Source: Candidatus Multivoraceae bacterium
Lineage (GTDB): Bacteria > Acidobacteriota > Thermoanaerobaculia > Multivoradales > Multivoraceae
Length of the DNA: 64,000 nt
Assembly (NCBI GenBank): GCA_965223385.1
Contig: CBDCWR010000007.1
Location: forward strand, 2,498,301 to 2,562,300
Reading direction: 5' to 3'
Shown here: positions 3,234 to 34,026 of the stretch, one piece after another
Layout of the letters: each line of letters starts with the position of its first letter
Position numbering within the stretch: the first letter of the stretch is position 1
The notes under the pieces: model-generated
What the model saw: the letters and a program-made list of their open reading frames with translations, nothing else
Told to the model about the DNA's origin: nothing
Databases searched by the model: none
Position numbers and translations under genes: made by a program

Positions 3234-3352
3234 GGCGTTGCGGAGCAGGGGGGCGCAGGCCTCGGTAGGGTGAGCGTGCCTCTGAAGATTCGGCGCGCGA
3301 GGCGCATCGGTTTGCGGGCTGTGTCACACTGCGACGTCGCGACGATGCTCTC

Positions 3353-14527: not shown

Positions 14528-17500
14528 TCAGTTTCCGGCGCCAACCTCCACGCCGGGCCACGCGCTCCACCACCACTGCGCGGGAAGCGGCTTCTCCTCC
14601 GGGTAGACCTGGTCGAGGGTCTCCGCCTCGTACAGCTCGCCATTCTTCATCACGTGCTCCACCGTGTTGGTGAGACGGATGTCGTCGAGAGGGTTGCCGC
14701 CGAGCACCACGAGATCGGCGATCTTCCCGGGGGTGATGCTTCCCAGGTCCTGAGCCAGGCCGATGATCCGTGCTCCCCCGAGCGTGGCGGCGTAGAGCAC
14801 CTCCCGTGGGGTCATGCCACCGGCCGCGAGTGACTCCATCTCCCAGTGGTAGCCGAGCCCCTGGAGCTGGCCGTGGGCGCCGACGCCGACGCGCCCGCCG
14901 GCGCGGTGGATGCGACCCGCCGACTCCGCGAGCATCGGGAAGACGTGCTCGTCGGGCCGGAACCAGATGCGCTTGCGCGAGACCCCGTCGATGAGGTCGT
15001 GTGGCATGAAGCGCCGCAGGCGCGCGTCGTCGTGGGGCGCGTCGCGCGTGAAGAACGCGTTCTCGGCCCAGGGCCCACCGTAGGCGACGAGAAGGGTCGG
15101 CGTGTAGCTCGTACCCTCCGCGTAGAGCTCGACGACATCCTTGTAGAGCGGCACCACGGGCAGGGAGTGCTCGTTGCCCGTGAAGCCGTCGATGGCGTGG
15201 GTGAGGTCCATCTCCATGTCGAGACCACCCTCGGTGGTGGGCATCATTTCGAGCTCGTAGGCCGCCTGTGCGAGCAGCTGACGCTGCTTGCGGTTGCCGG
15301 TGAGGTAGGCCTTCAGGTTGCGCGCGCCGTAGTGGTCCCGATACCTCCGCAGCACGCCTTCGGCCTGCGCCTTCGTCTTGAAGTCGTTGTCGGAGAAGAC
15401 GCCCGGGCCGGTGGAGTACGCCCTTGGGCCGAGCACCTCGCCCGCGTCGATCAGATCCTGGTAGGCGAACATGTCGTTGGACATGGTCTGCACGTCGAGA
15501 CCGGTGGTGACTCCCCACGCGAGCGACGCGAGAAACGGCCACGACTCGACGTCGAGCACGCGCCGGCGGATCTCGGTCCAGTGCGCGTGGGTGTCGACGA
15601 ACCCGGGGAGGACCGTCTTGCCGGACGTGTCGATGCGGCGCGTGCCCTCGGGGACGTCCAGGGATCCGCTCGCGCCCACGGCCTCGATGCGGCGCCCACG
15701 GACGAGCACGTCGCCTCGTTCGAAGACTTCGTCGCCGTTCATCGTGACCACCCGCCCGCCGGTGAGAAGCACCGTTCCCGACGGCTCCGCCCGCGGCAGC
15801 TCGGCCACGAGGTCGATGCGCGTGGCCTCGGGGAAGTCCGGGCCGTCGGCTTCTTCCTCGGCCTCCTCGCTGTCCTCCGAGGCATCGTCTGCGGAGTCGC
15901 CCGTGCTCTCGCCGTCCCCCGGCGTCTTGGGCTCCCAGTCGAGGTCGGCGAGAGGCGTGGAGTAGAAGGCGGCGCCCACGGCCCAGGCAATGGTGTCGCC
16001 GCCGTCCGCCCAGTGCATCAGATCGGCACCGAGGTCGCTCAGCTGCTTCACGGGCACACTCGGGGAATCGATGTTCACCACGGGAGCCTTGCCGACCCGG
16101 GGAACCGCGACCACGTAGAAGCGGTTGCTCACGCGGGCGATGGCCCAGCCGCCTCCTGGATGAATCTGGATCTCCTGGGCCGAGACCGGCTCGGACGCCG
16201 AGTAGAAGCCCGGCCCTTTCACTTCGAGGTGGGTGCGGCGATCCGTGCCGTCGAGCTTCATGGAGATGAGGCCCTGACCGGAGACCACGTAGATGCGGTC
16301 CGGCTCCGGCCCGAAGTGAGGCGTGGCGACGCCGCGCGACGGAGCGATGAGACGCGCCGCGCCGCCCGTGCTCGGGATCTCGACGAGATCGAGCTGAAGA
16401 GGTGAGCGGCCGAACTCTCCCGGCATCTCGAGGCGCGCGTGCCGGCCGCCGCGCAAGCTCACGATCGTCTCGCCGTCCGGGGCCCAGACGGGCTGGGCGT
16501 AGAAGGCGGGGCGGTTGGTCAGCTGCTGCGGTGTGCCCCCCGCAGCCGGCACGCGCCACACGTGGCCGCCGTCGCGCTCCCACGTGACGTAGGCGACCGA
16601 CGCGCCGTCGGGTGACCAGGCGGGTTGGAAGGCTCTCTGACCTTCGGCCGAGATCTGACGTGACGTACCGTCGCCGTCGGTCACGAACAGGCGGGTGAGT
16701 GCCGAGAAGGCCACCGTGTCGGACGTGGGCGAAGAGACGGCGCCCTGGACGGTGCGTGCGCGGACGGGGCCCTCCTCGACGCGGCGCGGGAAGTCGAGCA
16801 GCGGCGCGAGCTTCTGGTCGATCTGCGCAGTGAACGGGATGTCCGCCACGTCACCCGACAAGACGTTCACGCGCTTGAGCTTGCCGCCCCAGCTGACGAT
16901 GAGCTCGGATCCGTCGCTCGTGAACGCGTAGCCGGGGTAGAGGTCGCGCGAGAACAGCGACTCCTGCTCGTCGCGCTGCACGGGGTAGGCCAGCCAGCGC
17001 TCGTCGCCCGTCTCGAGGTCGCGCACCTTGATCCCGGTCTGGTTGTCGAGGCGCGTGGCGTAGGTGAGCAGCTTGCCGTCGGGGGAGAGCGCCGGGCGCA
17101 CCGCGCTGCCCTGCGCCGCCGTGAGGACGTCTTCGTCGCCGGTGTCGAGATCGCGCCGGGCGATCTGCCAGGCGGGAAAGTCCAGGTTGTAGGCGAAACC
17201 GCCGTTGCGCCGGGCGTAGTAGAGGTACTTGCCGTCCGGTGACGCCACCGCACCGAGCGCGTTGTGCTGCTGGCTCCGTGGCGTGTCCGGACCTGCCGCG
17301 GCCGTGGTCACCTGCACCCCGCTGCCCCCGTTGCGGTGGAAGGCGAAGATCTCGTAGGTGCGTTTGCCCTTGCCCATCGTCGACACGTAGACGTACTGCG
17401 CGTCGGCGGACCAGGAGGGCGACGTGAACGATCCGGCCGTCGCCTTGGAGAGCTTGCGCGGCGTGCGCGCGCCGTCGGCGTCGGGCTCGAGGGGCATCAC

Positions 17501-17905
17501 CCAGAGGTTCTGGGCCCCGTCGCGATCGCTCGTGAAGGCGATGAGCTCACCGTCGTGCGACACCGAAGGCTGCGAGTCGAAGCCCATGCCTTCCGTCAGG
17601 CGCTCGGCGGCACCGCCGCTCGTGGGAATGCGGTAGAGGTCACCCAGGATGTCGACCACTGCGTAGGCGTCGTCCGGCGTGAGCGATGCGGAGAGCCACG
17701 TGACCTCGTCTGTCTCGAGCGAGAAGGAGCGGAGGTTCTCGGAGTCCTCGAGCGGCAGACCGTCCTTCTTCTTGTCGGCCGTGCTGGCCGGCCCGGCCAG
17801 GAGAAGAGTAGCCGCCGCGAGCCCGAGGGTGGACCGCGCCCTGCGGGCGGCGCCCCGGGAGCGACGGACGAGGGTCGAGTGGGAGTGCGGTCGTGATTCA
17901 GGCAT
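14528..17905 (-). CDS. Periplasmic fusion protein: N-terminal TolB-like (PD40/WD40-like) beta-propeller plus C-terminal amidohydrolase.
   Basis: RBS AGGAGAGG upstream of the ATG at 17905. Signal peptide with an RR motif. Repeated S/T-P-DG-..-A propeller repeats. The C-terminus carries PGFVDTHAHW ... metal-binding His/Asp typical of the amidohydrolase superfamily. Confidence 0.8.
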   Translation of the reverse strand: MPESRPHSHSTLVRRSRGAARRARSTLGLAAATLLLAGPASTADKKKDGLPLEDSENLRSFSLETDEVTWLSASLTPDDAYAVVDILGDLYRIPTSGGAAERLTEGMGFDSQPSVSHDGELIAFTSDRDGAQNLWVMPLEPDADGARTPRKLSKATAGSFTSPSWSADAQYVYVSTMGKGKRTYEIFAFHRNGGSGVQVTTAAAGPDTPRSQQHNALGAVASPDGKYLYYARRNGGFAYNLDFPAWQIARRDLDTGDEDVLTAAQGSAVRPALSPDGKLLTYATRLDNQTGIKVRDLETGDERWLAYPVQRDEQESLFSRDLYPGYAFTSDGSELIVSWGGKLKRVNVLSGDVADIPFTAQIDQKLAPLLDFPRRVEEGPVRARTVQGAVSSPTSDTVAFSALTRLFVTDGDGTSRQISAEGQRAFQPAWSPDGASVAYVTWERDGGHVWRVPAAGGTPQQLTNRPAFYAQPVWAPDGETIVSLRGGRHARLEMPGEFGRSPLQLDLVEIPSTGGAARLIAPSRGVATPHFGPEPDRIYVVSGQGLISMKLDGTDRRTHLEVKGPGFYSASEPVSAQEIQIHPGGGWAIARVSNRFYVVAVPRVGKAPVVNIDSPSVPVKQLSDLGADLMHWADGGDTIAWAVGAAFYSTPLADLDWEPKTPGDGESTGDSADDASEDSEEAEEEADGPDFPEATRIDLVAELPRAEPSGTVLLTGGRVVTMNGDEVFERGDVLVRGRRIEAVGASGSLDVPEGTRRIDTSGKTVLPGFVDTHAHWTEIRRRVLDVESWPFLASLAWGVTTGLDVQTMSNDMFAYQDLIDAGEVLGPRAYSTGPGVFSDNDFKTKAQAEGVLRRYRDHYGARNLKAYLTGNRKQRQLLAQAAYELEMMPTTEGGLDMEMDLTHAIDGFTGNEHSLPVVPLYKDVVELYAEGTSYTPTLLVAYGGPWAENAFFTRDAPHDDARLRRFMPHDLIDGVSRKRIWFRPDEHVFPMLAESAGRIHRAGGRVGVGAHGQLQGLGYHWEMESLAAGGMTPREVLYAATLGGARIIGLAQDLGSITPGKIADLVVLGGNPLDDIRLTNTVEHVMKNGELYEAETLDQVYPEEKPLPAQWWWSAWPGVEVGAGN

Positions 17906-18105
17906 CAGCTCACCTCTCCTGGCCTTGCGGCAGGCGGGCTCGTTCATGGGTGCCGAGCTGCTCGCGTGCCCCCCGGCCTGCGCGAAATCGGCGTTCGGAT
18001 CGTGGGAGCCGTCATGCTAGCGGCTCGCCGAGGCTTCGGATAGCGCCGGGAGCACGGGCAGCTGAGCGTCGACATCTGGCCTCGACGTGGGCCGGCGCCC
18101 AGAGC

Positions 18106-20553
18106 CTAGGCGTCGGATCGGAGCGGCAGGAACCGCTTCAGGATGTTCTCTGTCTGCGTGGAGAACATCTCCCATCCGTAGCCTCCCGGAAGCTCTTGTG
18201 CGAAGAGATCGATGCCTCGGCCTCTCAGCTTCGGCAGGAGGCGCGCCACGGGCTCCTTGACCGACGTCGCTTCCAGATGCGCCTCGGAGTCGCGTGCGCA
18301 CCAGTCGATGTAGACCCGGGGCGTGTCGGTCGCACTCTCGAGGATGCGCTCGAGGTTGCGCTCGAAGGCGGCGTTGAGGTTCGGCGACTGTGCCGCCACG
18401 GCGCCGAACACGTCCGGGTGCCGCAGCGCGATGTCGAGCACGCGCGCGCCGTGCAGCATCGTGCCGGTGAGCACGCGGTCGGAGGCCTTCGTGGACAGGC
18501 TGTAGCGCTCCTCGAGCCACGGCAGCAGCTCCTCGAGGATCATGCGGGAGAAGAGCGGCCCTCGACTCGCCAGCGTCTCGTAGAACACGTTCATCTCGGC
18601 CGGCTCCGGGAGGTCGACGAACACGGCCACAGCCGGCTCCACCGAAACTCCCATCACGGCATCCAGGATCTCCGGCGTGCGCCCGAGGATGCGGTCGATG
18701 CCGCTCGCCACCAGGAGGAGCGGGTATTTGTGCCCCCCGTCGTAGCCGGCTGGTAGGTAGACGGTGACGTTGCGCTCGTTCTCGAGGATCGCGCTGGCGA
18801 AGTTGTGGTCTTCGGTGGTGCCGCGCTGCGCCGGCTCGGGGGCGCCGGGCGCGAGGGCCTCGGCCGGCTCGTAGTCGGGCATCAGCAGCAGCGACGACGG
18901 CAGCATGTTCGGTGAGCGCCGGGCGTTGTGCGGGTCGACCGTGGAGCGCTCGCCATCGACCTCGAAGCTGTACACGTACGCGCCCCGTCGGTCGAGGCTC
19001 TCGGTGCGGAACCAGAGGTCACCCGCAACCCGCTCCATCGGAACGGCGGACTCGACCGGCACGCCACCCGGGATCAAGGCGACGTCTTCGGCGTCGCTCC
19101 GAAACAGGAAGGTGACGGTGCCGTCGTCGTCGACCAGTGGAATCTCGTGCTCCCCGAGGAACGAGCTCGTGAGGGCGCCCCGCGCGTCTTCCGGCGCGGC
19201 CTCCCAGGCGTCGACGAACGAGGCGAGCCGGCCTGTGGGAACGAGGGCCGGATCGGTGTCGGTGACGAGCGCGCCCCTGCCGGGCGTGAGGCGGACGCGG
19301 AGCAGGCGATCGGGGGCGCGCAAGAGGAGGCCGTCGCCGGTCCAGGTCGGATTGGTCAGACTGGCGTTGTCGAGCAGCTGCGTTTCGCCGAGGAGACCCA
19401 GGCCTTCGCTCGATGGGTCGGCGAAGAGCAGGCGGCCGTCGACGGTCCACAGCGCGAGCATGCGATCGAGGAGCAGCGCCGAGCCGGGCCCCACGCCGCG
19501 GATCTTCCAGTGCCGCTCTCCGGTCGCGGCGTCGAGGCCCACGAAGAAGTCGCGACTCCAGCCGTACAGGTTGCCACCCTGCACCACGGGAATCCCGTAG
19601 CTCCTCTTGAGATCGCTGTTGCGCCACGTCTCCTCGACGGTCGTCGTGCCGCCCGCGCTCGACAGCCGGAAGCCGGCGACGTCGATCTGAGTGGTCACGG
19701 CGTAGGAGTCCGAGCCCGTCACGACGACGGTGTTGGAGTGGTTCTCGGGCTCGTTGCGGTACTGCGACTGCCAGAGGACGGTTCCTTCACTGGAGTCCAG
19801 GCCGAGCACCTTCGTCCCCGTCACGGCAACCAGCTGGCGGCGCCCCTGAAGATCGGCGAGGAGCGGAGACTGGTAGGCGACCCGGTCGTCGCCCGTCTGC
19901 CAGGCGACCTTTCCGGTCTTCGCCTCGAACGCCATCACGCTCCGGCCGTCGTCGCCGCCGTTCTGCACGACGAGCAGGTCACCGAGCAGAAGTGGCGACG
20001 TGGAGACGCCGTAGCTGAACGGCCGCGCGCCATGCTCCTCCGTGAGCTCGGTCTGCCATGCCGGCGTGCCCGTGTCGGTTCGGAGCGCAAACAGGCGACC
20101 GCGCGGGCCGAGGCCGAAGACGAGGCCGTCGCTCACGGCGGGCGAGCTGATCGGTCCGTCATCCGAGCCGTCGCGCCCCTTCCACGTGGGGCCCATGTCG
20201 TAGGTCCAGAGCTCTTCGCCCGTTTCGAGAGAGAGCGCCGCGAGGATGTCGCGCGTGCCGTCCGAGTAACCGAGGAACGCGCGCGCACCTTCCAGCGCGA
20301 CCTGGGTGTAGCCGGGGCCGAGCGGGCGGCTCCAGACCGTCTCCACGACGGGCGGGCCTTGGGCCGGGTCGAGCCCGGTCCCCTCGACGTGCAGGTTGAC
20401 GCCCGCGCCGCCCATGAACTGGCTCCAGGGGCCTTCGGATGTGGTGGCTCGCGCAGGAGCGTTGCCGACGAGCAGGGCGAAGAGAAGGGTGGCTCCGGCA
20501 CGGGTCGCCATTCGACGGGGTGCAGATTGGAACCGACGCTGCGTTGGACTCAT
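18106..20553 (-). CDS. Secreted PQQ-like beta-propeller fused to a C-terminal esterase (enterochelin-esterase/esterase-D-like) domain.
   Basis: RBS GGGAGAAA sits before the ATG at 20553, followed by the signal peptide MATRAGATLLFALLVGNAPARA. Repeated G.L.ALD..TGE.LW motifs are present. The C-terminal 350 aa resemble putative esterases (PLLLV..G...........D.....G). Confidence 0.7.
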   Translation of the reverse strand: MSPTQRRFQSAPRRMATRAGATLLFALLVGNAPARATTSEGPWSQFMGGAGVNLHVEGTGLDPAQGPPVVETVWSRPLGPGYTQVALEGARAFLGYSDGTRDILAALSLETGEELWTYDMGPTWKGRDGSDDGPISSPAVSDGLVFGLGPRGRLFALRTDTGTPAWQTELTEEHGARPFSYGVSTSPLLLGDLLVVQNGGDDGRSVMAFEAKTGKVAWQTGDDRVAYQSPLLADLQGRRQLVAVTGTKVLGLDSSEGTVLWQSQYRNEPENHSNTVVVTGSDSYAVTTQIDVAGFRLSSAGGTTTVEETWRNSDLKRSYGIPVVQGGNLYGWSRDFFVGLDAATGERHWKIRGVGPGSALLLDRMLALWTVDGRLLFADPSSEGLGLLGETQLLDNASLTNPTWTGDGLLLRAPDRLLRVRLTPGRGALVTDTDPALVPTGRLASFVDAWEAAPEDARGALTSSFLGEHEIPLVDDDGTVTFLFRSDAEDVALIPGGVPVESAVPMERVAGDLWFRTESLDRRGAYVYSFEVDGERSTVDPHNARRSPNMLPSSLLLMPDYEPAEALAPGAPEPAQRGTTEDHNFASAILENERNVTVYLPAGYDGGHKYPLLLVASGIDRILGRTPEILDAVMGVSVEPAVAVFVDLPEPAEMNVFYETLASRGPLFSRMILEELLPWLEERYSLSTKASDRVLTGTMLHGARVLDIALRHPDVFGAVAAQSPNLNAAFERNLERILESATDTPRVYIDWCARDSEAHLEATSVKEPVARLLPKLRGRGIDLFAQELPGGYGWEMFSTQTENILKRFLPLRSDA

Positions 20554-20747
20554 GTTTCTCCCGAGTGGCAGAGACTCCGTCTTCGTTCGCGAAGGCTCAC
20601 GTTCGAGACAACGTCGGGCTCGCCGCGATTCGGACATGGCGACACATCGTCCGAGGCTGCGGTTCCCGACGACCGCAGAATAGCCTCCTCCGACGACCAG
20701 CGTGTCCATCTGGGAATCCGAATTCCGTGAACTGTGTCGAGGTCACC

Positions 20748-23262: not shown

Positions 23263-24030
23263 TCAGCCGCCGCTCAGGATGCTCGCTCCCGCAACACCGA
23301 AGACGAAGGCGAGTCCGAGAAGCATCGGGGTCGCGGCGAGGAGCACGAAGAAGCCGACCGCCAAGAGGCCGCGCCAACCTGGTGGGCTGCGATCGGGCTC
23401 CCGCACGACCACGGTATCGGCCACCATGTCGAAGGCGCGTTGCTTCTTCTCGCTGAACGGCACGAAGAGGGCGTCGAGCGCGAGGAACTCGAAGTAGAGC
23501 GACAGCCGGCGGACGATCGCCTGCCCCCAGCCGATCTCCGCGCCGCTCTCGTCGCGGACGCGCAGGCGCATCAGGTGTTTGCCGGGCGTCTTGCCGAAGC
23601 GCTTCTCGAACACCGGGAAGTACAGGACGGCGATGCCGACGTAGGCCATGCCGAGGGCCATGATGGCGGCGACGGCGAAGATGGCTGGGAGCTCCACGTC
23701 GCTCGACCCGTCGAGCGCCTGCAGGCGCGGCAGCAGGAGGAGCACCAGGCCGAAGATCGGCAGAGCTCCGGTCACCAGAACGCCGAGGTCGGCGAAGAAG
23801 GCCGCGACGCGACGCCAGAAGCCCGCGTGCTCCAGCTCGACATCCTCCATGAGCTCGGCGGCCACGTCGTCGGGTGCGCCGAGTCGCGCCGCGACGGCGG
23901 CGGCCGATTCGCCGTCTTCCCGTGCCCGCGCGAAGTGGGCGCGCAGGTCGCTCTCGATGCTCGCGCGACGCGACTCCGGGACCCAGATGCGACGCAGCAC
24001 GTTGTGGACATAGCGATCTTCGATGGGCAT
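23263..24030 (-). CDS. Transmembrane protein with an N-terminal HAAS-like helical domain and a C-terminal RDD-family domain.
   Basis: RBS AAGGAAGGAAG before the ATG at 24030. The start overlaps the PadR stop (TGATG). The N-terminus (Y.HNVLRRI..P......DLRAHF....EDG.S...V.A.LG.P..VA.EL) fits the PadR-associated HAAS pattern. TM helices follow, then ..RFGKTPGKHLMRLRV.. of the RDD domain. Confidence 0.65.
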   Translation of the reverse strand: MPIEDRYVHNVLRRIWVPESRRASIESDLRAHFARAREDGESAAAVAARLGAPDDVAAELMEDVELEHAGFWRRVAAFFADLGVLVTGALPIFGLVLLLLPRLQALDGSSDVELPAIFAVAAIMALGMAYVGIAVLYFPVFEKRFGKTPGKHLMRLRVRDESGAEIGWGQAIVRRLSLYFEFLALDALFVPFSEKKQRAFDMVADTVVVREPDRSPPGWRGLLAVGFFVLLAATPMLLGLAFVFGVAGASILSGG

Positions 24031-24401
24031 CAGCTTCCTTCCTTTCGGGTGCTGTCGAGGAGTCGGTCGACGTGGTCGCGGTAGCTGCGCCACTCGTCTT
24101 CGAGGTGCCGTTTGCGGACGTGACCCGTGTTGGTGAGGCGGTAGTACTTGCGTGGCACGCCACGGTCGGGCTTCGACCACTCGGGCGCGATGTGCCCCTG
24201 ATCTTCGAGGCGGTAGAGCACCGGGTAGACGGTGCCCTCCTTGAGCTCGAGGCCGCCACTGCGCTCTTCGAGCTCGGAGACCAGCTCGTAGCCGTACTTC
24301 GGACGCTCTTCCAGGAGCGAAAGGAGGAGCAGCTCCAGGGTGCCGCGGCGCAGCTCGCGGGCGAGCCCGACGCGGGGCCTGGCTGCGCGTTTTCGAGGCA
24401 C
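24030..24401 (-). CDS. PadR family transcriptional regulator.
   Basis: GTG start at 24401. The winged HTH (LELLLLSLLEERPKYGYELVSELEERSGGLELKEGTVYPVLYRLE) is the PadR hallmark. Confidence 0.8.
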   Translation of the reverse strand: MPRKRAARPRVGLARELRRGTLELLLLSLLEERPKYGYELVSELEERSGGLELKEGTVYPVLYRLEDQGHIAPEWSKPDRGVPRKYYRLTNTGHVRKRHLEDEWRSYRDHVDRLLDSTRKEGS

Positions 24402-24422
24402 GACTAGATATACGGTATGAGC

Positions 24423-24447
24423 ATGTACTTGGTTGCGCCAAGTATAC
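24423..24447. promoter_or_regulatory. Candidate PadR operator: inverted repeat TACTTGG-n5-CCAAGTA in an AT-rich leader upstream of the PadR gene.
   Basis: 7-bp perfect arms with a 5-nt spacer. The site is embedded in ATGTACTTGGTTGCGCCAAGTATAC, in the only AT-rich stretch of the region. Confidence 0.45.
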
Positions 24448-24481
24448 TCTGACCCAGCACGATGCCGCTGGAGGCCTGCCC

Positions 24482-25141
24482 TCAGAAGCGGTAGCCGAGG
24501 CCCACGGCGACCGAGACCGGGTCGAGATCGAGATCCTCGCCGGCTCGCTCCGATTCGAGCAGGAGCGCGCTGGCGCGAAGCTCCGTGTTCAAGAACCAGG
24601 CGTCGCCGAGCGGGATGTCCGCCCCGACCTTGAGACCGAAGCCGAGATCGTCGTCGAACCGCAGCTTGGTCTCCCGGGTGGTCCCCGCGAAGAAGGTGAC
24701 GTCGGAGAAGTTGCCCTGGGTAACGAAGGGGCCGAGGGTCCAGTCGACCCGGGAGTCGCGGGAGGCGAACGGATGCCAGTCGAAGCCGACGAGCCACGCA
24801 TACGTGCTCATCGACCGGGTCTCGCGGAGGCCGGCACTGGCGCCGACCCCGGTGAGCTCGTTGTCGAATTCGCCGATCTGGGCACCGATCTCGAGACTGA
24901 ATCGGGGGGAGAACGCGTACTCCAGGGAGATGCCCAAGGCGAGCCCTTCACCGCTCGTGTCGTGGTCGGCGCGGAGGTCGGGTGGCTCGATGCGTGTCGG
25001 ATCGCTCGCCAGAGTGAGGAGGCTGGCCGAGGCCTGCACCTTCCACTTGTCCTCCCAGATCTGAGCATGGAGTGCGGTCGTGCCGAGGAGGGCCGTTACG
25101 AGAACGACGAGGGGTTTCGAGGGCCCGGTTCCGAGCTTCAT
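24482..25141 (-). CDS. OmpW-family outer-membrane beta-barrel protein.
   Basis: Signal peptide, alternating beta-strand hydrophobicity, and a C-terminal ..GLGYRF. Confidence 0.7.
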   Translation of the reverse strand: MKLGTGPSKPLVVLVTALLGTTALHAQIWEDKWKVQASASLLTLASDPTRIEPPDLRADHDTSGEGLALGISLEYAFSPRFSLEIGAQIGEFDNELTGVGASAGLRETRSMSTYAWLVGFDWHPFASRDSRVDWTLGPFVTQGNFSDVTFFAGTTRETKLRFDDDLGFGLKVGADIPLGDAWFLNTELRASALLLESERAGEDLDLDPVSVAVGLGYRF

Positions 25142-25271
25142 CTGGGAGCTCCGTGACGGCGGATGTCCGCCGAGCCAAGTGATCGGAAGAGTGCCGCTGC
25201 GTGCAGCAGCCGGCTCCCTCCTGAAGATGCGAGTGGAGGGGAGATCCTCTGTGCCGGCGCGCAGGGGATGA

Positions 25272-28200
25272 TCACTCGTCGGCGTCGCGCGACGGGCTGC
25301 CGTGCCCGCCGGTCTCGATCTTCTTCAGCGCGCTGACGAGGTCCTTGAAGCGGTCCACCTGCTTCAAGGTCCGCTCCGTGAGCTGCTCGAGGCGAGCGTC
25401 GGGCTCGATCTCCTGGCGCTTCATCCAACGGGAGAGGTCCTTGAGCACGTCCATGACGCCGGTGTCGATGTTTTCCGAGAGCTCGTCGATGAGGTCGTAG
25501 ACGCCGGGCTGCAGCGTCTGCACCACCCGCACCGTCTCGCCGCTCCCCTGCGGCAGCTGCACGTTGGCGATGGCGCCGCCGATGGCCTGCATGCCGCGGA
25601 CGAGCCGGTCCAGCTGCCGGGTCACGGCTTCCACCTGGGCCGAGGAGATCGAGCCCGGGGCGGGTGAGGAGCTCGTCGGCGGCAGCGTCATGCTGCTCGA
25701 GCGTCGCTTCCCGCCGGTCTCCTCCGGCTCGGGCAGCTCCATGAGTGCGGGGGACTCGGCGGGGGCAGGCGCCGGCGCCCGGCTCGCCGCAACGTGCGTC
25801 GCCTGGGCCGTGGCCTGTGCCAGGGTGTCGAGCGTCTCCTGCAGCTTGTCCACGTAGGGGCCGAGGTCGAGCTCCACGCGCTGTGGCTCGGTGGACGAGG
25901 CTTCGGCCGCCTCGGCCCGGCGCTCCATGCGCTGGGCGATCGCGGCGTCGACACGGGCCGACACGAGCCGCGAGAGGCGCTCCTGCGAGGGCTCCGCGTC
26001 GTCTTCACGCGTGTCGGACTCTCTCTGCGCTTCGGACGCCGCCTCGATGCTCGCCCCGATCGTGCTGCCGATCTCTCCGAGCCGATCGGACAGCAGGCCG
26101 AGCGTGCCGGTGACGCGGGTGACCGGGTCGTCCTCGGCACCACCCATTGCCCGCGTGCGGAGGAACCCCTGCTTGATGCTCTCCCAGCGCGCAGCCTCTT
26201 CGTCGGTGAGCACGCCGCGCAGCTCGCGCAGCTTGAGGATGTTCTGCTCGGCTCCGGTGGTCAGCGTCTGCGCCTCGCCGGCGTAGTGGTCGTCGAGGAG
26301 GGCCTCCATCTCTTCGTCGTTCATCACGGCGACGATCTTCTCCGCAAGCTTGTTCATGTTGCGGTAGGAGCCCTGCAGCTGGAACGGCGGCTCGGTGCGG
26401 TAGTTGTCGTCCTGCGCGGCGGAGGCGATGTACTGCTGGTTGACCGCGAGCAGCACCTCCTGTGCACGCAGCAGCTTGCGCAGTACGGCCAGGATCTCGT
26501 TCACCTCTGCAGCCGAGTACGGATGTGAAAGCTGGTCGATGGCTGCGGGTTCCGACCCGACCTGGACCGACTTTCCTTTGGCCATGTCGACCAGCTGATG
26601 GACGTCTTTCGGGTCCCGTCCGGCCAGCGGTGCGAGCACCGGGTTGGAGGTGAGCGAGTTCTCGATGTAGCTGAGCGCAAAAAGATCGTCTTTGCCTTCG
26701 AGCACGTCACCCAGGTTGTAGACGTCGGCGCGGTTGGCCAGCATGTCGGGAATCTGGAAACGCTCACCGGCCTCCGTGTACGGGTTGCCGGCCATGCACA
26801 CGGCGAACTTCTTGCCGCGCAGGTCGTACGTCTGCGTGCGTCCCTTCCACACACCCTCCACGCGGCGTTGCGCGTCGCACAGCGAGATGAACTTCTGCAG
26901 CAGCTCGCTCGACGTGTGCTGGATGTCGTCGAGGTAGAGCAGCACGTTGTTGCCGAGCTCGAAGGCGAAGTTGATCTTCTCGACCTCCTGGCGCGCGGTG
27001 GCGTTCGGCGCGTCGGCCGGGTCGAGCGAGTTGACGCCGTGGCCCAGGGCCGGGCCGTTCACCTTCACGAACACGAGGCCGAGCCGGTTTGCGACGTACT
27101 CCATGACCGTCGTCTTGCCATAGCCGGGCGGCGAGATCAGCAGCAGGAGGCCCATGAGGTCGGTGCGCTTGGCATCGCCGAAGGCCCCGATCTGCTTCGC
27201 GAGGTTGTCGCCGATGAGCGGCAGGTAGACCTCCGACAGGAGACGGTTGCGCACGAACGAGCTCATCACCCGCGGCTGGTACTCCGAGATGCGGAGCCGC
27301 TCCCGCTGCCCCTCGAGCAGCTCGTGGCGCTGGGCCTGGAAGTTGCGGAAGCCCGGAGCGGTCTCCGCCACGTGGGAGTCGATGCGCGCGAGGAAACGGT
27401 CGAGGCGTAGGTCGAGCTCGCCGCGCTCGACGCGCGGGTGCTGACCCAGGAGCCCGCGCACCGTGGAATGGGTGCGCGCGTGACTCTCGAGACGGCTCAG
27501 CCCTTCGCCGGCGGTCACGAGAAGGGCTGCCAGCTCGAGCTCGGGGCCGGGTCCGATCGTGTCGGGGGTTGCGGCTTCGGTGCCCGAAGCAGCGTCGCCC
27601 GGCGCGCTCGGCACGATCACGCTGCGAATCCATGCCCGCGCCAGCGCGATCCGCTCGCGCAGTGACGAGAGCTTGCGGAGGTCGCCGTCGAGCTCGCGCT
27701 CGAGCTGGTGGTCGCGCAGCGCCCGATCGAGGGAGTCGCGGAGCGCGAGCGCTTCCGGTCCGAGCACGAACTCGAGCCGATCGCGCCCCAGCTCTTCCGC
27801 GAGGTAGTGTCCGGCGGCGACCGAGGAGAAGGCGGGGAAGTCGAGAGCCTGCGCCTCGACGAAGGTCACGACCTCGGCTCCGATCTCCCGGGCCAGGTCG
27901 GTGATGGCTCGGCTCTGGCCGAGCGCTCCGCGAAGACGAACGAGGCTCTGGGCCCGCGTCTGGAGGGTCTCCTGAGCCTCGCGCTCGAGGCCGTACGTCC
28001 AGTAGAGGATCGCGGCGGCGCGTGCGGTGCCGCTGTAGCGCAGGAGGCCGCCAGTGGATGCGAGCGACAGCGCCTGCGTCAGGATGAGCGCTGCATCAGC
28101 GTCGTGGACTCCGCGCTCGTAGCCCTCGTCGTAGCGCTCCGTGGTGACCTCGCGCACGAGGTCGAGCACCGTTTCGGTCTCCACGGCCTCGTGCAGCCGC

Positions 28201-31052
28201 TCGAGGCTCAGACCGTCCTCCTCATGCTCGGCGGCGCGCAGGATGGACCCTGCGAGGTACTCGGCGCGGTAGAGGTCTCCCGTCTCGGAGACGGTGGGCT
28301 GCTGCCAGTAAGGCCGCGTACTCTCGAACTCGGGATCGTCGATCTCCTCGTAGAAGTCGGTCCCGGTCAGGTGCAGCGCCATCGTGTCGGCACGGGGCAC
28401 GAGAGTGAGGTCGAACGGTTGGGTGTTCACGGAGAAGCGGTGCTTGCCGAGGCGCAGCACGTCGCCCTCCTCGAAGATCTCCTGGCGATCGCGGAACCCG
28501 CGCGTCGCCTCCTGCTGGGTCGACTTGATCCGACTCGTGATCTCGTCGGCGCGCACCGAATCGCCGAGCTCGCGCAGGTCCTCCGCGAGGCTGCGCACCT
28601 TCATGACCATGGCGTCGGAGGCGAAAAACGCGCCCAGCTCGGCGGCGTCTTCGAATGTCTGGCCGCGCCTGGCGACGCTCTCGAGGATGCGGTCCGCGGC
28701 CTCGGAGAGGCGCTCGGCGCGGCGCTGCCGCTCGTCGAGCAGCAGCTGCTTCTTCGCGCTGAAGGCCTCGTAGACCTCCTCCCGCTTGGTGACGAGCTGG
28801 GTGAGGAACTCGTCGAAGTCGGCATAGCGGCTCTCCAGCTCCTCGAGCTGGAGCATCTGACGGGCGAGCGCCTCGTCGCACTCTTCGGGAGTGGTCGCCA
28901 GGGCGATGGCGGAGGAGACGGCCTGGCCGTACAGCTTGAACTCCGCACCGAACTCGGCCGTGGCCTCGCGGGACCGCAGCTCTTTGGAACGGTTCTGCGT
29001 CAGCGCGCGCACCCGATTGGTGGCTGCAAGTACCTCGGAGATCCGCTCGAGTAGCGCTGCGCGAACCGTGGCGTCGTCCACCTCCAGGGTGCCGACGATC
29101 TCGGTCAGGAGGCGCAGGCCTTCGTCGAGACGATCGATCTGCTCGGTGGTCTCCGCCGCGTCTTTGACGGTGGAGAGGCTCTCGAGACTCGTTTCGATCT
29201 CCTGCGCGCGCCGGTGGTAGGGGTCGAGGGCCTTCTCGTCGGCCAGGAAGGCGACCGTACGCTCACTGATGTCGTCGAAGGCCGCCGCGCACCGCTCCTC
29301 GAGAGTGGCCAGCGCCTCCTCGTCGATGTAGCGCAGCTCCCGCAGCGTGATGAGCTGGCCGCGCTGCCGGCGGAGCTGCGCCAGCGCGTCGGTGAACTGC
29401 GTGGCCTCCGACCACGAGTCGGGCTGCAGCCCGCGGCGAATCTCCGCCATCTCGGCTTCGGCCTCGGCCAGTGCCTTCGACGACTGGGCGCGGATGGCCT
29501 GCACCTTCTCGAACTCGTCGACGATGAGCTCGGCCGTATCCCGGACCGCCCCGACTCCTTCCGCGATCCCGGCCGCGTCTTCGTGCTCGAGCCAGTGATA
29601 GGCGTCGAGCGTCCGCGTGCAGCTGCGGATGAGCTCCTCGTACAGCTCGACCGACTCCGAGGGCTCCGAGATCGCACGCTCGATCGCGAGCGCATCGGAG
29701 ATACCGCGTACGAGCTCTGCGTTGCCGATCTGCTCGAGGTAGGTGCCGGCTTCACCGGAGGCCGCCTGTGCTGCGAACTCCTCCGAGCAGAAGGGCGACT
29801 GCCAGACCTGCATGGTGTGCACGCGCGTCGGCTCGTCGGAGGTGGCGCGGAAGACGATCAGACGCCCGCTGTCGAAGACCGAGTAGCCGTGGCAGTCGAT
29901 GGGTGTCTGGATCTCCTTGCGCAGCAGGTTGTAGGGCAGCAGCTGGAAGCGCCCGCTCGCACGGTGGTGAAAGACGTAGAGCACGTCCTCGCCGTTCGGC
30001 GAGCGGATGCGCTTGACGTACTCGAGGTCGGAGACGTCCGCAGCGAAGGTCTTCGACTCGCCCGAGGCCAGGGCGTAGCCGCCCGGGAAGATCACGCCGT
30101 GGTCTTCGGGCAGCTGCTGACAGGCCAGGCCAATCGCATCGACGCGGAAGACCTTCTTGGTCAGGCAGCTGAAGACGAAGTAGCGCCACTTGCTCTCGCG
30201 AAAGGGAAGGATGCGGAAGAGGATGAGGCTCCCCAGGCGCGCGTACTCGTACTCGGCGTCGTCGAGTGCCTGATCGGCGTCGTCCACCGGCTCGCGATAG
30301 ATGCCGAGGCCGTCTTCGGTGTTGTTCTCGACCTTCACCGTCAGGTCGCCGCCGACGGTCTCCACGAAGACCTCACCCAGAATGTCCACGTGCGGGTGGG
30401 CGCCGTGCACGTGATCGTCCCGCGACGCCGGTTTCCACTCGAAGTCGTGGGCGGACTCGAAGACGTGGTCGCGCTCGCCGCGGTTGTCGACGTAGGTGGC
30501 GACCCCGTCGGCGTCGACGCTCCACCGCAGAACCTTGACGTCGAGCGCCGTCGCTCCGGTCTGGAAGATGGCCAGCAGCTGGCCGCCGAAGTTGCGCAGC
30601 TGCAGCAGGCGCGCGGACGCGTAGTAGGTGTACAGCTCGCGGAAGTCGGCGACGAAGCGGGGGTCGGACAGGAACGGCGCCTCGGCGTCCTCGAACGCGA
30701 AGGTGCCGTCGTCTCTCTCGACGAAGCGCTGCGACGAGAAGACGTCGTGCACGTCCGTCTCCTTCTTCAGCCCGAGGAAGACGTTGTAGCCGAAGACGAG
30801 CGTGTCGCCCACCTGCGCGATGTCGCGCGGGACGCAGTTGTTCTCCGTGCGGATGCGGAGGCTGCCCGTGACCTCGAACGGGGTTCCTCCGAAGAGCTCG
30901 AGGCGCTTCTGGTTGAGCGCCTCGGCCCGGTCGCGCAGATCCGCCGCCTGGCTGACCAGGCGGTCGCGGACGATCTCGTAGGTTGCCCGCTCGATCTGCG
31001 GCCCGGACTCTTCCGTGGGCTCCGCGGTCGCCGACTTGGCGTCGTCAGCCAC
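25272..31052 (-). CDS. Giant (1926 aa) coiled-coil protein with an embedded AAA+ ATPase domain (AAA_5/MoxR-dynein-like). Its start overlaps the flotillin stop.
   Basis: Walker A ISPPGYGKTT, Walker B NVLLYLDDIQ and sensor region KFAVCMAGNPYTEAGERFQIPDMLANRADVYNLG at about aa 1380-1570. More than 700 aa of E/R/A/L-rich heptad-like sequence precede it. No TM or signal peptide. Confidence 0.8.
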   Translation of the reverse strand: MADDAKSATAEPTEESGPQIERATYEIVRDRLVSQAADLRDRAEALNQKRLELFGGTPFEVTGSLRIRTENNCVPRDIAQVGDTLVFGYNVFLGLKKETDVHDVFSSQRFVERDDGTFAFEDAEAPFLSDPRFVADFRELYTYYASARLLQLRNFGGQLLAIFQTGATALDVKVLRWSVDADGVATYVDNRGERDHVFESAHDFEWKPASRDDHVHGAHPHVDILGEVFVETVGGDLTVKVENNTEDGLGIYREPVDDADQALDDAEYEYARLGSLILFRILPFRESKWRYFVFSCLTKKVFRVDAIGLACQQLPEDHGVIFPGGYALASGESKTFAADVSDLEYVKRIRSPNGEDVLYVFHHRASGRFQLLPYNLLRKEIQTPIDCHGYSVFDSGRLIVFRATSDEPTRVHTMQVWQSPFCSEEFAAQAASGEAGTYLEQIGNAELVRGISDALAIERAISEPSESVELYEELIRSCTRTLDAYHWLEHEDAAGIAEGVGAVRDTAELIVDEFEKVQAIRAQSSKALAEAEAEMAEIRRGLQPDSWSEATQFTDALAQLRRQRGQLITLRELRYIDEEALATLEERCAAAFDDISERTVAFLADEKALDPYHRRAQEIETSLESLSTVKDAAETTEQIDRLDEGLRLLTEIVGTLEVDDATVRAALLERISEVLAATNRVRALTQNRSKELRSREATAEFGAEFKLYGQAVSSAIALATTPEECDEALARQMLQLEELESRYADFDEFLTQLVTKREEVYEAFSAKKQLLLDERQRRAERLSEAADRILESVARRGQTFEDAAELGAFFASDAMVMKVRSLAEDLRELGDSVRADEITSRIKSTQQEATRGFRDRQEIFEEGDVLRLGKHRFSVNTQPFDLTLVPRADTMALHLTGTDFYEEIDDPEFESTRPYWQQPTVSETGDLYRAEYLAGSILRAAEHEEDGLSLERLHEAVETETVLDLVREVTTERYDEGYERGVHDADAALILTQALSLASTGGLLRYSGTARAAAILYWTYGLEREAQETLQTRAQSLVRLRGALGQSRAITDLAREIGAEVVTFVEAQALDFPAFSSVAAGHYLAEELGRDRLEFVLGPEALALRDSLDRALRDHQLERELDGDLRKLSSLRERIALARAWIRSVIVPSAPGDAASGTEAATPDTIGPGPELELAALLVTAGEGLSRLESHARTHSTVRGLLGQHPRVERGELDLRLDRFLARIDSHVAETAPGFRNFQAQRHELLEGQRERLRISEYQPRVMSSFVRNRLLSEVYLPLIGDNLAKQIGAFGDAKRTDLMGLLLLISPPGYGKTTVMEYVANRLGLVFVKVNGPALGHGVNSLDPADAPNATARQEVEKINFAFELGNNVLLYLDDIQHTSSELLQKFISLCDAQRRVEGVWKGRTQTYDLRGKKFAVCMAGNPYTEAGERFQIPDMLANRADVYNLGDVLEGKDDLFALSYIENSLTSNPVLAPLAGRDPKDVHQLVDMAKGKSVQVGSEPAAIDQLSHPYSAAEVNEILAVLRKLLRAQEVLLAVNQQYIASAAQDDNYRTEPPFQLQGSYRNMNKLAEKIVAVMNDEEMEALLDDHYAGEAQTLTTGAEQNILKLRELRGVLTDEEAARWESIKQGFLRTRAMGGAEDDPVTRVTGTLGLLSDRLGEIGSTIGASIEAASEAQRESDTREDDAEPSQERLSRLVSARVDAAIAQRMERRAEAAEASSTEPQRVELDLGPYVDKLQETLDTLAQATAQATHVAASRAPAPAPAESPALMELPEPEETGGKRRSSSMTLPPTSSSPAPGSISSAQVEAVTRQLDRLVRGMQAIGGAIANVQLPQGSGETVRVVQTLQPGVYDLIDELSENIDTGVMDVLKDLSRWMKRQEIEPDARLEQLTERTLKQVDRFKDLVSALKKIETGGHGSPSRDADE

Positions 31053-32950
31053 TACGACCGGTCCTCAGGCTGCGCCCCTCCTTCGGCGAGCAGCTTGCCG
31101 AGCTGGTCCTGCGTGACACCCTGGTCGCGCAGCATCTTGGCGATCATCGCGAAGAGCGCCAGGTTCTGGGCGCCGTCGGTGCCGCCGCCGATCAGGCCCT
31201 GGAGGTCTTCGGGCAGGCGGGCCTTGCCGTCCATGTAGTCGGAGAGCAGGGCCTTCACCGTGTCCGACCGGTCGACGAAGCCGTCGACCGACTTGCCCAT
31301 CGCGATGGAGTTCACGAGGCGATCGAGGAAGACGCCGTCGCCGCCCACGATGTCGATGTTGGCCTCCTGCAGCGCCTGCGAGAGCACCGCGGCCTGCGCT
31401 TCGGCGACCGCCTTGCGCGCCTCGATCTCTTCGCTCTCGATGGCCCGGTCCTTCTCGAGGCGGAGCCGGAACTCCTCGTGACCGCGGGTCGCTTCGTCGA
31501 GCGCGGCCATGGCCGCTGCCTTCTTCTCGATGCCGGCCGCCTCGGCGGTGAGCTTCTCCTGGATCGCGGACGCCTCGGCGGAGCCCTGCTCGCGGAGCAC
31601 GGCGGCCTCGGCGCGGCCCTGCTTCTCGACGGCGGTCGCATCCTGCTCCTTCACCCGGACCTCAGCCAGCCCTTCGGCAGCAGCCTCGGCCTGCACGCCT
31701 TCGGCCAGGCGGATCTTGGCCTGCGCCTCCTTGTCCGAGGCTTCGAGCTCGGCGTCGGCCAGGATCAGACGCTGGCGTGCCTGGAACTTCGCCGCCTCTT
31801 CCTGGGCCTCGGCGGCCTTGATGTCCTTGACGAGGTTCTCCTGCGCGGCGGCTTCGGCGGTGATGATGGTCGCCTGCTTCTGCCGGTTCGCCTCCTCGAC
31901 GACGCGCAGCTCCTTGATGCGCTCTTCTTCTTCGGCGACGGTGCGGTCGACGGCCACACGCTCGCGGATGACGTCGGCGATGGCCTTCTTCTCGACCTCG
32001 ACCTCCTTCTCCTTGGCGATCGTCTGCAGCTCGGTCTCGCGGTCGCGCGAGATCACCTCGAGCATGCGGTCCTTCTCGACGCGCTCCCCCTCGACGGCGA
32101 TGACGCGCTCCTTGTTCTTGGCGGCCACCTCCACCTGGCGGAGGCGGTTCTCCTCGTTGATCTGGATCTCTTCGTCGGCGCGGATACGGGCGTTCTCCGC
32201 CTTGAGGCGCTCTTCGGACTGCACCTTCGCGATCTCGGCCTGCTCGCGGGCCTGCACCGTGGAGATCTCGCGCTGCTGCCGCGCCTCGGCGTCGGCCTGC
32301 TGCCGCTCGAGCTCGAGGATCGCCTCTGTGGCCTCCACGTCCTGCTTCTTGATCTGCTTCTTCTCGAAGTTCTCGAACTCGTTCGTCTTCACGTGCTCGG
32401 TGGCGGTGAGCTCGGTGATCTTGCGGATGCCCTGCGCGTCGAGGATGTTGTAGGTGTCGAGTGCGGTCATCGGCGTCTGCTCGAGGTAGTCGATCGCCGC
32501 GTCCTCGAGGAAGTAGCCGTTCAGGTCGCGGCCGATGACCCCGATGATCTGATCGCGGAACTCCTCGCGCTTCGTGTAGAGGTCGACGAAGTCGAGCTGC
32601 TTGCCGACCGTCTTGAGCGCCTCGGAGAACTTGGCGGAGAAGAGCTGCTCGAGAGTGTTGGGGTCGGAGGCGCGCTTACAGCCGATCGCCTGGGCGACGC
32701 GGATGACGTCTTCGGCCGACTTGTTCACGCGCACGAAGAAGGCGACCTTGATGTCGGCCCGGATGTTGTCGCGACAGATCAGACCCTCGGTGCCGCGCCG
32801 GTCGATCTCGATCGTCTTGAGCGAGATGTCCATCTCCTCCACCTTGTAGAGGAGCGGCCAGACCACCCTCGGGGTGAACGAGACGCTGATGTTCCCTGGG
32901 CGCGTGAGCACGAGGGCACGACCTTGTTCGACTTTCCGGTACCACCACAT
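31052..32950 (-). CDS. Flotillin-family (SPFH/Band 7) protein.
   Basis: RBS AAGGAG. An N-terminal hydrophobic hairpin and an SPFH domain are followed by a long E/A/K/R-rich flotillin-type coiled coil. Confidence 0.85.
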   Translation of the reverse strand: MWWYRKVEQGRALVLTRPGNISVSFTPRVVWPLLYKVEEMDISLKTIEIDRRGTEGLICRDNIRADIKVAFFVRVNKSAEDVIRVAQAIGCKRASDPNTLEQLFSAKFSEALKTVGKQLDFVDLYTKREEFRDQIIGVIGRDLNGYFLEDAAIDYLEQTPMTALDTYNILDAQGIRKITELTATEHVKTNEFENFEKKQIKKQDVEATEAILELERQQADAEARQQREISTVQAREQAEIAKVQSEERLKAENARIRADEEIQINEENRLRQVEVAAKNKERVIAVEGERVEKDRMLEVISRDRETELQTIAKEKEVEVEKKAIADVIRERVAVDRTVAEEEERIKELRVVEEANRQKQATIITAEAAAQENLVKDIKAAEAQEEAAKFQARQRLILADAELEASDKEAQAKIRLAEGVQAEAAAEGLAEVRVKEQDATAVEKQGRAEAAVLREQGSAEASAIQEKLTAEAAGIEKKAAAMAALDEATRGHEEFRLRLEKDRAIESEEIEARKAVAEAQAAVLSQALQEANIDIVGGDGVFLDRLVNSIAMGKSVDGFVDRSDTVKALLSDYMDGKARLPEDLQGLIGGGTDGAQNLALFAMIAKMLRDQGVTQDQLGKLLAEGGAQPEDRS

Positions 32951-33185
32951 ACAGAAACTCCTTCCCTCGGCTCAGCGTTGGATGGTCCAGGTGTGCCCTG
33001 GATGTCCCCCGATGGAGTGCTCGAGGCGCAGGTCGACGCGGCCCCCAGGGGGGCGGGTCGCTCTCGGCTCCCGCTGGCGCGGGGCTCGGTCGTCTCGGAG
33101 CAGGCTCATGGTCCCCTTCGGCCGGCTCGATTAGGCCGCCCTACGAGATCTAACGCAGTTTGGTTGCGACGATCGACAGAATCAT

Positions 33186-33204
33186 CTTCGCAGGATCTGC
33201 GAAG
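33186..33204. promoter_or_regulatory. 19-bp palindrome CTTCGCAG-gat-CTGCGAAG in the divergent promoter region between the flotillin operon and the nitroreductase gene.
   Basis: 8-bp perfect arms. Located 235 bp upstream of the flotillin start and 187 bp upstream of the nitroreductase start. Confidence 0.35.
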
Positions 33205-33390
33205 GGGGGCCAGGGAAAGACGTGTCGCTCGGGAACGATCGGCGCGTGGGGCGTCCCCGAGGTCCTCTCGGGGACCGGGCGAGGAGTACACTGAGCGTCC
33301 CCAACGCAATCCGAGCTCGCGCGGAGGGGTACGGCGCCCCGGGGGTGTCGTGCTTTCGGGTCTGCCGCGAGCGACGCCAGGAGAGTCGCG

Positions 33391-34026
33391 ATGACGGAAG
33401 AGATTGGCCTGTTCGACGCCCTGTTCCACTGCCGGGCGATGCGCAAGATCAAGCCGGACGCAGTACCGGAGGAGATGCTGGTGCGCCTGATCGAAGCCGG
33501 CAACCAGGCCCCGAGCGGGTCGAACCTGCAGGGAGCCCGCTGGATCGTGGTGCGCGACCCGGACGTGAAGGCGGAGCTCGCCCGCCTCAACAAGATCGGG
33601 GTCGAGGAGTACATCGGGCCGATGGACGGCCAGGGTGCGTCGTTGCCCCACCAGAATGCCGACAAGCGTCAGCGCATGATCAACGCCGTGCTCTGGCAGG
33701 CGGAGCACATGCACGAGATCCCCGCGCTCGTCATCGCATGCATGAAGTTCGGGCGCGAGGTGACGGAGCTCGAGCGCGCGCAGGCGGGCGGCTCGATCTG
33801 GCCGGGCATCCAGAACGTGCTGCTCGCGGCTCGAGGGCTCGGCCTCGGCGCCGCGCCGACCACGCTGGGGCTGCGCGACCGCGCCGCGGTGAAGGAGGCG
33901 CTCGCCCTGCCGGACGACATGGAGGCGATCTGCCTCATTCCGGTCGGCTGGCCCATGGGCAACTTCGGTCCGGTCACCCGGCTGCCGGTCGAGCAGACCA
34001 TGCGCTGGGATCGCTGGTCGGCGTAG
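33391..34026 (+). CDS. Nitroreductase-family protein.
   Basis: RBS AGGAGA. Nitroreductase-fold motifs are present (R.IKPD..P.E.L..LIEAG..APSGSN.Q..R...V). Confidence 0.8.
   Translation: MTEEIGLFDALFHCRAMRKIKPDAVPEEMLVRLIEAGNQAPSGSNLQGARWIVVRDPDVKAELARLNKIGVEEYIGPMDGQGASLPHQNADKRQRMINAVLWQAEHMHEIPALVIACMKFGREVTELERAQAGGSIWPGIQNVLLAARGLGLGAAPTTLGLRDRAAVKEALALPDDMEAICLIPVGWPMGNFGPVTRLPVEQTMRWDRWSA

Follow-up and report, generated by a model that had tools for sequence, protein, structure and literature searches.

The 64,000-nucleotide stretch of Candidatus Multivoraceae DNA analyzed here (hereafter the window, about 68% GC throughout) contains a two-gene operon that is a reduced member of a conserved module consisting of a YqiJ (NfeD-like) protein, a YqiK-type flotillin, and a DUF3686 AAA+ ATPase. 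The flotillin and the giant ATPase form a functional unit, for which ATP-driven remodeling of flotillin scaffolds, and of PspA scaffolds, in membrane or envelope stress is the likely role. The pairing of these two proteins has already been published by comparative genomics, and it also occurs in a Pseudomonas aeruginosa operon that has been studied; new here are the link between BacE of that operon and the DUF3686 ATPase, the structural layout of the giant protein, and a minimal clade variant that has neither the flotillin transmembrane (TM) helix nor YqiJ.

Conservation of the gene pair and its operon context

Both genes are on the minus strand. The flotillin open reading frame (ORF; called and translated from the sequence) starts with ATG and occupies 32950-31052 (632 aa), and the ORF of the giant ATPase starts with GTG and occupies 31052-25272 (1926 aa). 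Stop and start overlap as TAGTG (31050-31054), with the flotillin TAG at 31054-31052, the giant GTG at 31052-31050, and base 31052 common to both, as a preliminary description of this DNA had reported. A GAGGA sequence is located at 31066-31062, 9 nt 5′ of the GTG. GC content was 0.93 (flotillin) and 0.90 (giant) at third codon positions, and 0.37 and 0.43 at second positions, making these the only ORFs of the region with the expected codon-position pattern; given this third-position signature in sequence of 68% GC, both look like real genes.

A scan of one genome per species gave more than 600 matches, from which 80 loci were kept, drawn from Acidobacteriota, Myxococcota, many Actinomycetota, Planctomycetota, and Gammaproteobacteria (including Pseudomonas, Xenorhabdus, Lysobacter, Pseudoalteromonas, and Methylomonas). 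In 77 loci the giant gene has a flotillin homologue upstream of it in the same orientation. Upstream DNA is scarce or missing in the remaining three, yet in L079, which is among these three, the 3′ end of a flotillin gene can be seen 10 nt from the start of the giant gene. Flotillin is not directly adjacent in L046 and L078, which are among the 77, but lies 3.4-6.4 kb upstream; stop and start overlap or are separated by at most 10 nt in 32 of the 77. The giant protein is about 50% identical across phyla over 1650-1900 aa. The pair is thus conserved across genomes, with flotillin upstream in every testable locus of the 80 and in at least five phyla. Chance adjacency of two unrelated genes draws on nothing beyond the single window, and is excluded by the same order and strand in all testable loci over several phyla together with the frequent stop/start overlap, leaving it a negligible probability. 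In the closest relative of the window (L085:8296-8697), the giant start is called about 400 nt after the flotillin stop, probably too far downstream.

All-against-all clustering of the ORFs in these loci revealed a third conserved gene, encoding a multi-TM protein of about 180-290 aa with a C-terminal beta domain, immediately upstream of flotillin in all 72 loci whose upstream DNA is long enough. The profile of this family aligned with E. coli YqiJ, a short NfeD-type protein, at an hhalign probability of 92% (E 5e-7, 173 columns), and one member passes the Pfam YqiJ_N cut-off. No YqiJ homologue was found across the whole 64-kb window, and the closest relatives (L081, L082, L085-L087) likewise have a short flotillin and no YqiJ. 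That the TM helix and YqiJ are generally lost together was rejected, since a second lineage with an anchorless flotillin (L089-L091) retains YqiJ (hidden Markov model [HMM] E 1e-52 to 1e-65), so that loss of the helix is not always coupled to loss of YqiJ. Judging from the sequences compared, the acidobacterial clade of the window is the only one without both.

In the second anchorless lineage, a conserved protein of 760-830 aa is encoded ahead of YqiJ, flotillin, and the ATPase (L089:1634-3913, L090:1330-3612, L091:1596-4088). Its copies are 55-61% identical, with a Rossmann-like N-terminus (FGGTGAVGG) and no Pfam match, and it is a possible additional operon member. L090 also encodes a stand-alone 164-aa Band_7 fragment resembling the flotillin N-terminus (L090:4462-4956), between YqiJ and the full-length anchorless flotillin, which may be a partial duplication.

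DUF2170 and PspA/IM30 genes, a dyad confined to gammaproteobacterial loci, stand ahead of the module in 17 such loci; a PLD-like gene comes after the module in 9 and a rhomboid gene in 8 (Pfam-confirmed). PspA, DUF2170, PLD, and rhomboid genes were all absent from the 64-kb window, where the DUF2170-PspA dyad was sought with HMMs built from the 17 loci; a marginal PspA-HMM match at 2661-3323 was rejected as a shikimate-kinase-like ORF. The P. aeruginosa locus reads DUF2170, PspA_IM30, a 213-aa protein, a 688-aa protein, P0251 (a 1746-aa DUF3686 protein), PLDc_2, yaeQ, recJ, lasB. This order fits PA3732-PA3727 upstream of lasB, identifying P0251 as BacE of bacABCDEF (PA14_16140-16200). BacE is on this basis assigned as the DUF3686 ATPase, which is not stated in Wallart et al. 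2024, and the module corresponds by sequence to the bacC-bacD-bacE core of this PspA-containing operon. The order is the same as in the window, with flotillin right before the ATPase, and the giant protein is 51% identical to BacE over 1646 aa. The bac operon additionally has BacA (DUF2170/CesT-like), BacB (PspA/IM30), BacC (YqiJ-like), and BacF (PLD), whereas the window is without all four. The genes bacA-F are co-transcribed, and mutation of bacA raises BacB-F 6-13 fold (Wallart et al. 2024, PMC10948618).

The operon class had been described by Ravi et al. 2024 (PMC11237479) as containing CesT/DUF2170, PspA, YqiJ, a TM-flotillin, and sometimes PLD, with an ATPase termed a "novel AAA+ ATPase with coiled-coil and beta-propeller"; abbreviated operons without PspA were reported to be widespread. 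The window is such an abbreviated form. Its flotillin and propeller/coiled-coil/AAA+ protein match this class, the giant protein showing the modeled domain order propeller, helices, AAA+, whereas YqiJ and the TM-flotillin of the class are both missing from the window clade.

Architecture of the flotillin and the ATPase

By sequence comparison, the first protein is a YqiK-type flotillin, the counterpart of P. aeruginosa BacD (PA3729/PaFlo3). The full-length protein matched no Pfam or NCBIfam model, since its Glu/Ala-rich remainder masked the Band_7 match; with the scan restricted to residues 1-200, an SPFH/Band_7 domain (PF01145) was detected at residues 6-149 (32504-32935, minus strand; 45.6 bits, cut-off 23.6 bits, E 1e-11), confirming the earlier SPFH call. 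Searches of Protein Data Bank (PDB) sequences with the single sequence and with a profile of homologues gave no match for the flotillin. E. coli YqiK (from MG1655) aligned with it by BLASTP at E 1e-33 (28% identity over 423 aa), window residue 3 pairing with YqiK residue 32, right after the YqiK TM segment. The 688-aa BacD is 50% identical and has an N-terminal TM helix, whereas the alignment of the window protein begins with its residue 3 paired with BacD residue 30. Database homologues carry the names "flotillin family protein" or YqiK.

A strong Shine-Dalgarno sequence read from the DNA, GGAAGGAG (32958-32965, minus strand), is located 7 nt before the flotillin ATG, and an in-frame TGA at 32974-32972, 24 nt 5′ of the ATG, means that the ORF cannot extend further N-terminally. 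The N-terminus reads MWWYRKVEQG, the SPFH core beginning two residues after the start. Most homologues are 660-700 aa long, with a hydrophobic helix of about 25 residues ahead of the conserved F-Y-R-K-V-E-Q-G, and about 20 of the closest 120 homologues start directly at this motif, among them every one of the nearest relatives of the window protein. The position of the start, the Shine-Dalgarno sequence, and the upstream stop therefore indicate that the window flotillin has no N-terminal membrane helix, and it is classed as an anchorless form. No TM-like stretch was found in either protein by Kyte-Doolittle hydropathy averaged over 19 residues (mean below 1.6 throughout), which agrees with the earlier statement that the giant protein has no TM segment. 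The complex had also been called membrane-microdomain-anchored, a description that does not fit a copy without the TM helix and without its YqiJ partner: as these two known anchoring elements are missing, membrane attachment of the window copy is unproven, and its contact with the membrane, if any, would be peripheral or through a partner encoded elsewhere.

The giant protein is assigned from its sequence as a DUF3686 AAA+ ATPase, the counterpart of BacE (PA3728/PA14_16190). It had been described as having an unrecognized N-terminal domain of about 550 aa and as belonging to no nameable family. That domain is Pfam DUF3686 (PF12458; residues 38-486, 29595-30941, minus strand as for all domains below; 649.5 bits, E 2.9e-195), followed by DUF7902 (PF25472; residues 607-691, 28980-29234; 85.6 bits), and the protein belongs to the family that NCBI calls "DNA repair ATPase", found in the operon class of Ravi et al. 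2024. More than 5000 clusters at 90% identity have the full architecture (1600-1950 aa) under this label, and 752 representatives at 50% identity match the N-terminal domain, which is always N-terminal in full-length proteins. Against PDB sequences, the giant protein matched only through P-loop stretches and low-complexity helices, and no protease, DNA-binding, or nuclease domain was found in it by Pfam scans.

The structure was predicted in two AlphaFold2 (AF2) models spanning residues 1-1200 (mean predicted local distance difference test [pLDDT] 85.5) and 1001-1926 (pLDDT 78.4). The DUF3686 domain is modeled as an N-terminal helix (19-54) followed by a beta-propeller of about seven four-stranded blades (60-418, pLDDT mostly above 85), whose Foldseek matches are the beta-propellers of Elp1, IFT-A, the clathrin N-terminus, and prolyl oligopeptidase. 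Very long helices follow over about 430 aa (424-857), those at residues 487-857 (28482-29594), 45-57 residues long, forming a coiled-coil-like stalk that contains DUF7902. The coiled coil had previously been put at more than 700 aa; the models reduce this to the 430-aa segment, the other helical parts belonging to globular domains. A middle domain (residues 881-1146, 27615-28412, pLDDT 85-96) consists of a small beta unit (881-903) and a helical bundle (929-1146) that carries the motifs HRFSVNTQ and RYDEGYERG.HD.DAA, invariant in the homologue alignment; this domain had no Pfam match and no recognized relative.

The AAA+ module (about residues 1270-1500, 26553-27245; Pfam AAA/AAA_5 match at 1303-1426) contains Walker A PGYGKTT, Walker B LLYLDDIQ, sensor-1 AGNPY, and an NRAD arginine, and the motifs originally listed (GYGKTT, LLYLDDIQ, and AGNPY..IPDMLANRAD) were all located in the translation. 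A beta-hairpin precedes the sensor-1 strand, and by structure comparison the core fold is nearest to MoxR, midasin, and dynein modules, with NorQ and CbbQ closest, so the earlier AAA_5-type assignment stands as MoxR/dynein-type. Among 240 homologues, PGYGKTT and the NRAD/NRSD arginine motif are present in 240, and DMLANRAD in 234. Walker B reads hhhhDDIQ in 237/240, an Asp replacing the usual catalytic Glu (D1375-D1376 in the window, codons 26927-26932), and this nearly invariant Asp-Asp pair suggests a slow or switch-like ATPase. The C-terminal helical region (residues 1501-1926, 25275-26552) is conserved and confidently modeled to about 1640, and the remainder (about 1640-1926) is a low-complexity helical tail of low confidence.

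Upstream region and neighboring genes

Upstream of flotillin, a 440-bp spacer separates the operon from a divergent nitroreductase gene. A palindrome at 33186-33204 had been put forward as a candidate operator. The 8-3-8 sequence, CTTCGCAG-ATC-CTGCGAAG, does exist, and as an operator it was rejected: the window contains 32 perfect 8-nt inverted repeats of this kind against 11-27 in shuffled sequence, and the closest relatives carry unrelated sequence at this position of their syntenic intergenic region. A block of about 45 nt, CTCGTAGGGC..CGAGCCGG..GGGGACCA.GA (about 33108-33150, minus strand, about 160-200 nt 5′ of the flotillin start), is kept in the syntenic relatives L085 and L087, its flanks not, and may be a promoter or 5′-UTR (untranslated region) element. 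Scanning 24400-33500 for sigma-70 promoters gave no promoter-like site on the correct strand, and a terminator scan of the same region gave one terminator-like match, inside the flotillin gene and on the wrong strand. A sigma-54 site has been proposed upstream of bacA (PMC10948618); in the window, matches to the sigma-54 -24/-12 elements were about as frequent as expected by chance, and the region upstream of the operon had none in the correct orientation.

The giant gene is followed after 130 nt by the gene of an OmpW-family outer-membrane beta-barrel (24482-25141, minus strand), and then by those of a PadR-like regulator (PF03551, 82.7 bits, in ORF 24797-24030) and a HAAS + RDD membrane protein (ORF 24441-23263), both on the minus strand. 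PadR-HAAS pairs are of the kind listed by Ravi et al. 2024 as a PSP-associated signaling module (PMC11237479). The pair here (23263-24350) shares the strand of the giant gene, from which it is two genes removed on the downstream side, and in L081, L082, and L092 it does not adjoin the flotillin-ATPase pair; neither the OmpW-like nor the PadR-HAAS genes are conserved in relatives, and both were rejected as operon members. Further along the minus strand, large secreted-looking proteins with a PD40 beta-propeller and an amidohydrolase (14528-17947), and with a PQQ-like propeller and an esterase (18106-20709), appear unrelated.

Proposed function and its alternatives

Several known systems share parts of this arrangement. 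The window flotillin is a homologue of YqiK, and the gene upstream of flotillin in related loci a homologue of yqiJ; the E. coli yqiK gene is followed by no giant ATPase, and, more generally, the classical NfeD-SPFH2 operons (yqiJK, and yuaF-floT of B. subtilis) have none (Hinderhofer et al. 2009, PMC2636767), whereas the window has no yqiJ and its flotillin is longer than YqiK at the C-terminus while lacking the first ~30 residues (TM). An anchorless SPFH protein at the membrane has a precedent in B. subtilis YdjI, which links PspA to the membrane through YdjG/H in the PspA-YdjGHI (SamGHI) system (PMC8581546). YdjI, however, is of a different SPFH subfamily and is recruited by YdjG/YdjH of its own operon, whereas no such membrane partner is encoded beside the window genes, and that system has no AAA+ ATPase. 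HflK/C-FtsH and QmcA-YbbJ (cited in PMC13086221) pair an SPFH scaffold with an AAA+ machine or an NfeD partner. Homology of HflK/C and QmcA to the window pair is confined to the SPFH domain, and FtsH is a membrane-anchored classic-clade AAA protease, in contrast to the giant protein, which has neither a TM segment nor a protease domain and whose AAA+ module is of the MoxR/dynein clade. MoxR ATPases themselves (NorQ, CbbQ; AAA_5) are about 250-350 aa, work with VWA partners, and have DE in Walker B, whereas the module here is embedded at about 1270-1500 of a 1926-aa protein in a family with DD.

In the mechanism proposed, the flotillin would use its SPFH region and its Glu/Ala-rich helical region to build a large oligomeric scaffold in the shape of a ring or dome, of the type that other SPFH proteins form. 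The giant protein would assemble into a ring through its single MoxR/dynein-type AAA+ module, with the long helical stalks holding the N-terminal beta-propellers away from the ring, and the propellers would bind the flotillin scaffold, as well as polymers of PspA wherever that protein occurs. Binding of ATP and its slow hydrolysis could then drive assembly, disassembly, or reshaping of the scaffold under membrane or envelope stress, in functional resemblance to Vps4 acting on ESCRT-III, or to the AAA+ partner of the HflK/C cage. A membrane-stress role is proposed because the gammaproteobacterial operons also include PspA, YqiJ, PLD, and rhomboid genes, and of the remodeling, surveillance, or defense machine originally suggested it is this membrane-remodeling part that these operons favor, and not defense.

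A number of points weigh against this proposal. Physical contact between flotillin and the ATPase is suggested by gene linkage only. The Asp-for-Glu substitution in Walker B could mean weak or no hydrolysis. MoxR-type ATPases normally work with VWA partners, and no VWA-domain gene was found among the scanned window neighbors or related loci. With no anchor, no YqiJ, and no PspA in 64 kb, the membrane role is least secure for the window copy itself. Deletion of paFlo3 (bacD) in P. aeruginosa reduced biofilm by only about 20%, and no phenotype under stress was seen (PMC13086221).

Instead of reshaping the scaffold, the ATPase could act on clients: flotillin would gather membrane proteins that are damaged or unassembled, for the giant protein to extract or unfold, like HflK/C-FtsH, with rhomboid and PLD proteins finishing the process. 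SPFH cages do enclose an AAA+ protease (PMC13086221), and S. aureus FloA-NfeD stabilizes unfolded proteins according to the cited literature. Rhomboid protease and PLD genes do follow the ATPase in the 8 and 9 loci noted above, but are limited to Gammaproteobacteria and absent from the window, and the giant protein has no protease domain of its own. The closest structural relatives, the MoxR proteins NorQ and CbbQ, remodel a partner and do not thread substrates. Client-directed quality control is considered doubtful.

Anti-phage defense or abortive infection from a membrane scaffold and a large NTPase, which the preliminary description had suggested, would suit the patchy, horizontal-transfer-like distribution of the locus within Pseudomonas (PMC13086221), and the combination of a large ATPase and a sensor-like propeller has a superficial likeness to STAND or AVAST-type proteins. 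A search with PADLOC-DB v2 gave only insignificant matches (mad8 at E 0.002, where no stretch reached the threshold, and LmuB at E 0.0085), however, and effector domains such as nuclease, protease, or TIR were absent. Neighboring genes in the window and its relatives have ordinary roles in metabolism, regulation, or the envelope, with no defense or mobile-element context, the consistent operon partners are PspA, YqiJ, and PLD, and about 50% cross-phylum identity over 1650-1900 aa with 752 clusters at 50% is far above typical arms-race conservation, making a defense function very unlikely. The family names point instead to a DNA repair ATPase related to RuvB-type motors: the Pfam description of DUF3686 reads "ATPase involved in DNA repair" and the NCBI product name agrees, weak RuvB P-loop matches and a Foldseek match to RuvB (E 2e-6) were obtained, and recJ lies two genes downstream of the P. 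aeruginosa operon. The NCBIfam RuvB model nevertheless scored 18.2 bits, its cut-off being 282, scans for DNA-binding and nuclease domains were negative, and every conserved partner is a membrane-associated protein. Neither DUF3686 nor PF12458 turned up in any paper of the library searched, and a search joining flotillin to the DNA repair ATPase was equally empty, so the name has no traceable experimental basis, and a repair function is regarded as highly improbable.

The scaffold-remodeling role may be taken further, to a DUF3686 ATPase that serves as the dedicated ATP-driven motor by which scaffolds of flotillin (and those of the PspA/ESCRT-III-like kind) are assembled and disassembled, making it the bacterial equivalent of Vps4 or of coat-uncoating ATPases, with a propeller-stalk arrangement convergent with eukaryotic coats and a soluble or peripheral flotillin cage formed by the window pair. 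This extension is speculative and held to be rather unlikely; if true, the pair of the window clade would be a membrane-independent SPFH particle serviced by a motor.

Flotillins and PspA are central to bacterial membrane organization and repair, and we know of no energy-consuming partner shown experimentally for either outside HflK/C-FtsH. The DUF3686 protein is large, conserved across phyla like core housekeeping proteins, and linked to flotillin in all testable loci, and the BacE assignment provides a genetically tractable P. aeruginosa model for it. The anchorless, YqiJ-less clade offers a natural minimal system of two soluble proteins, for which reconstitution and structure determination should therefore be easier, and it raises the question of whether a flotillin scaffold works without being embedded in a membrane.

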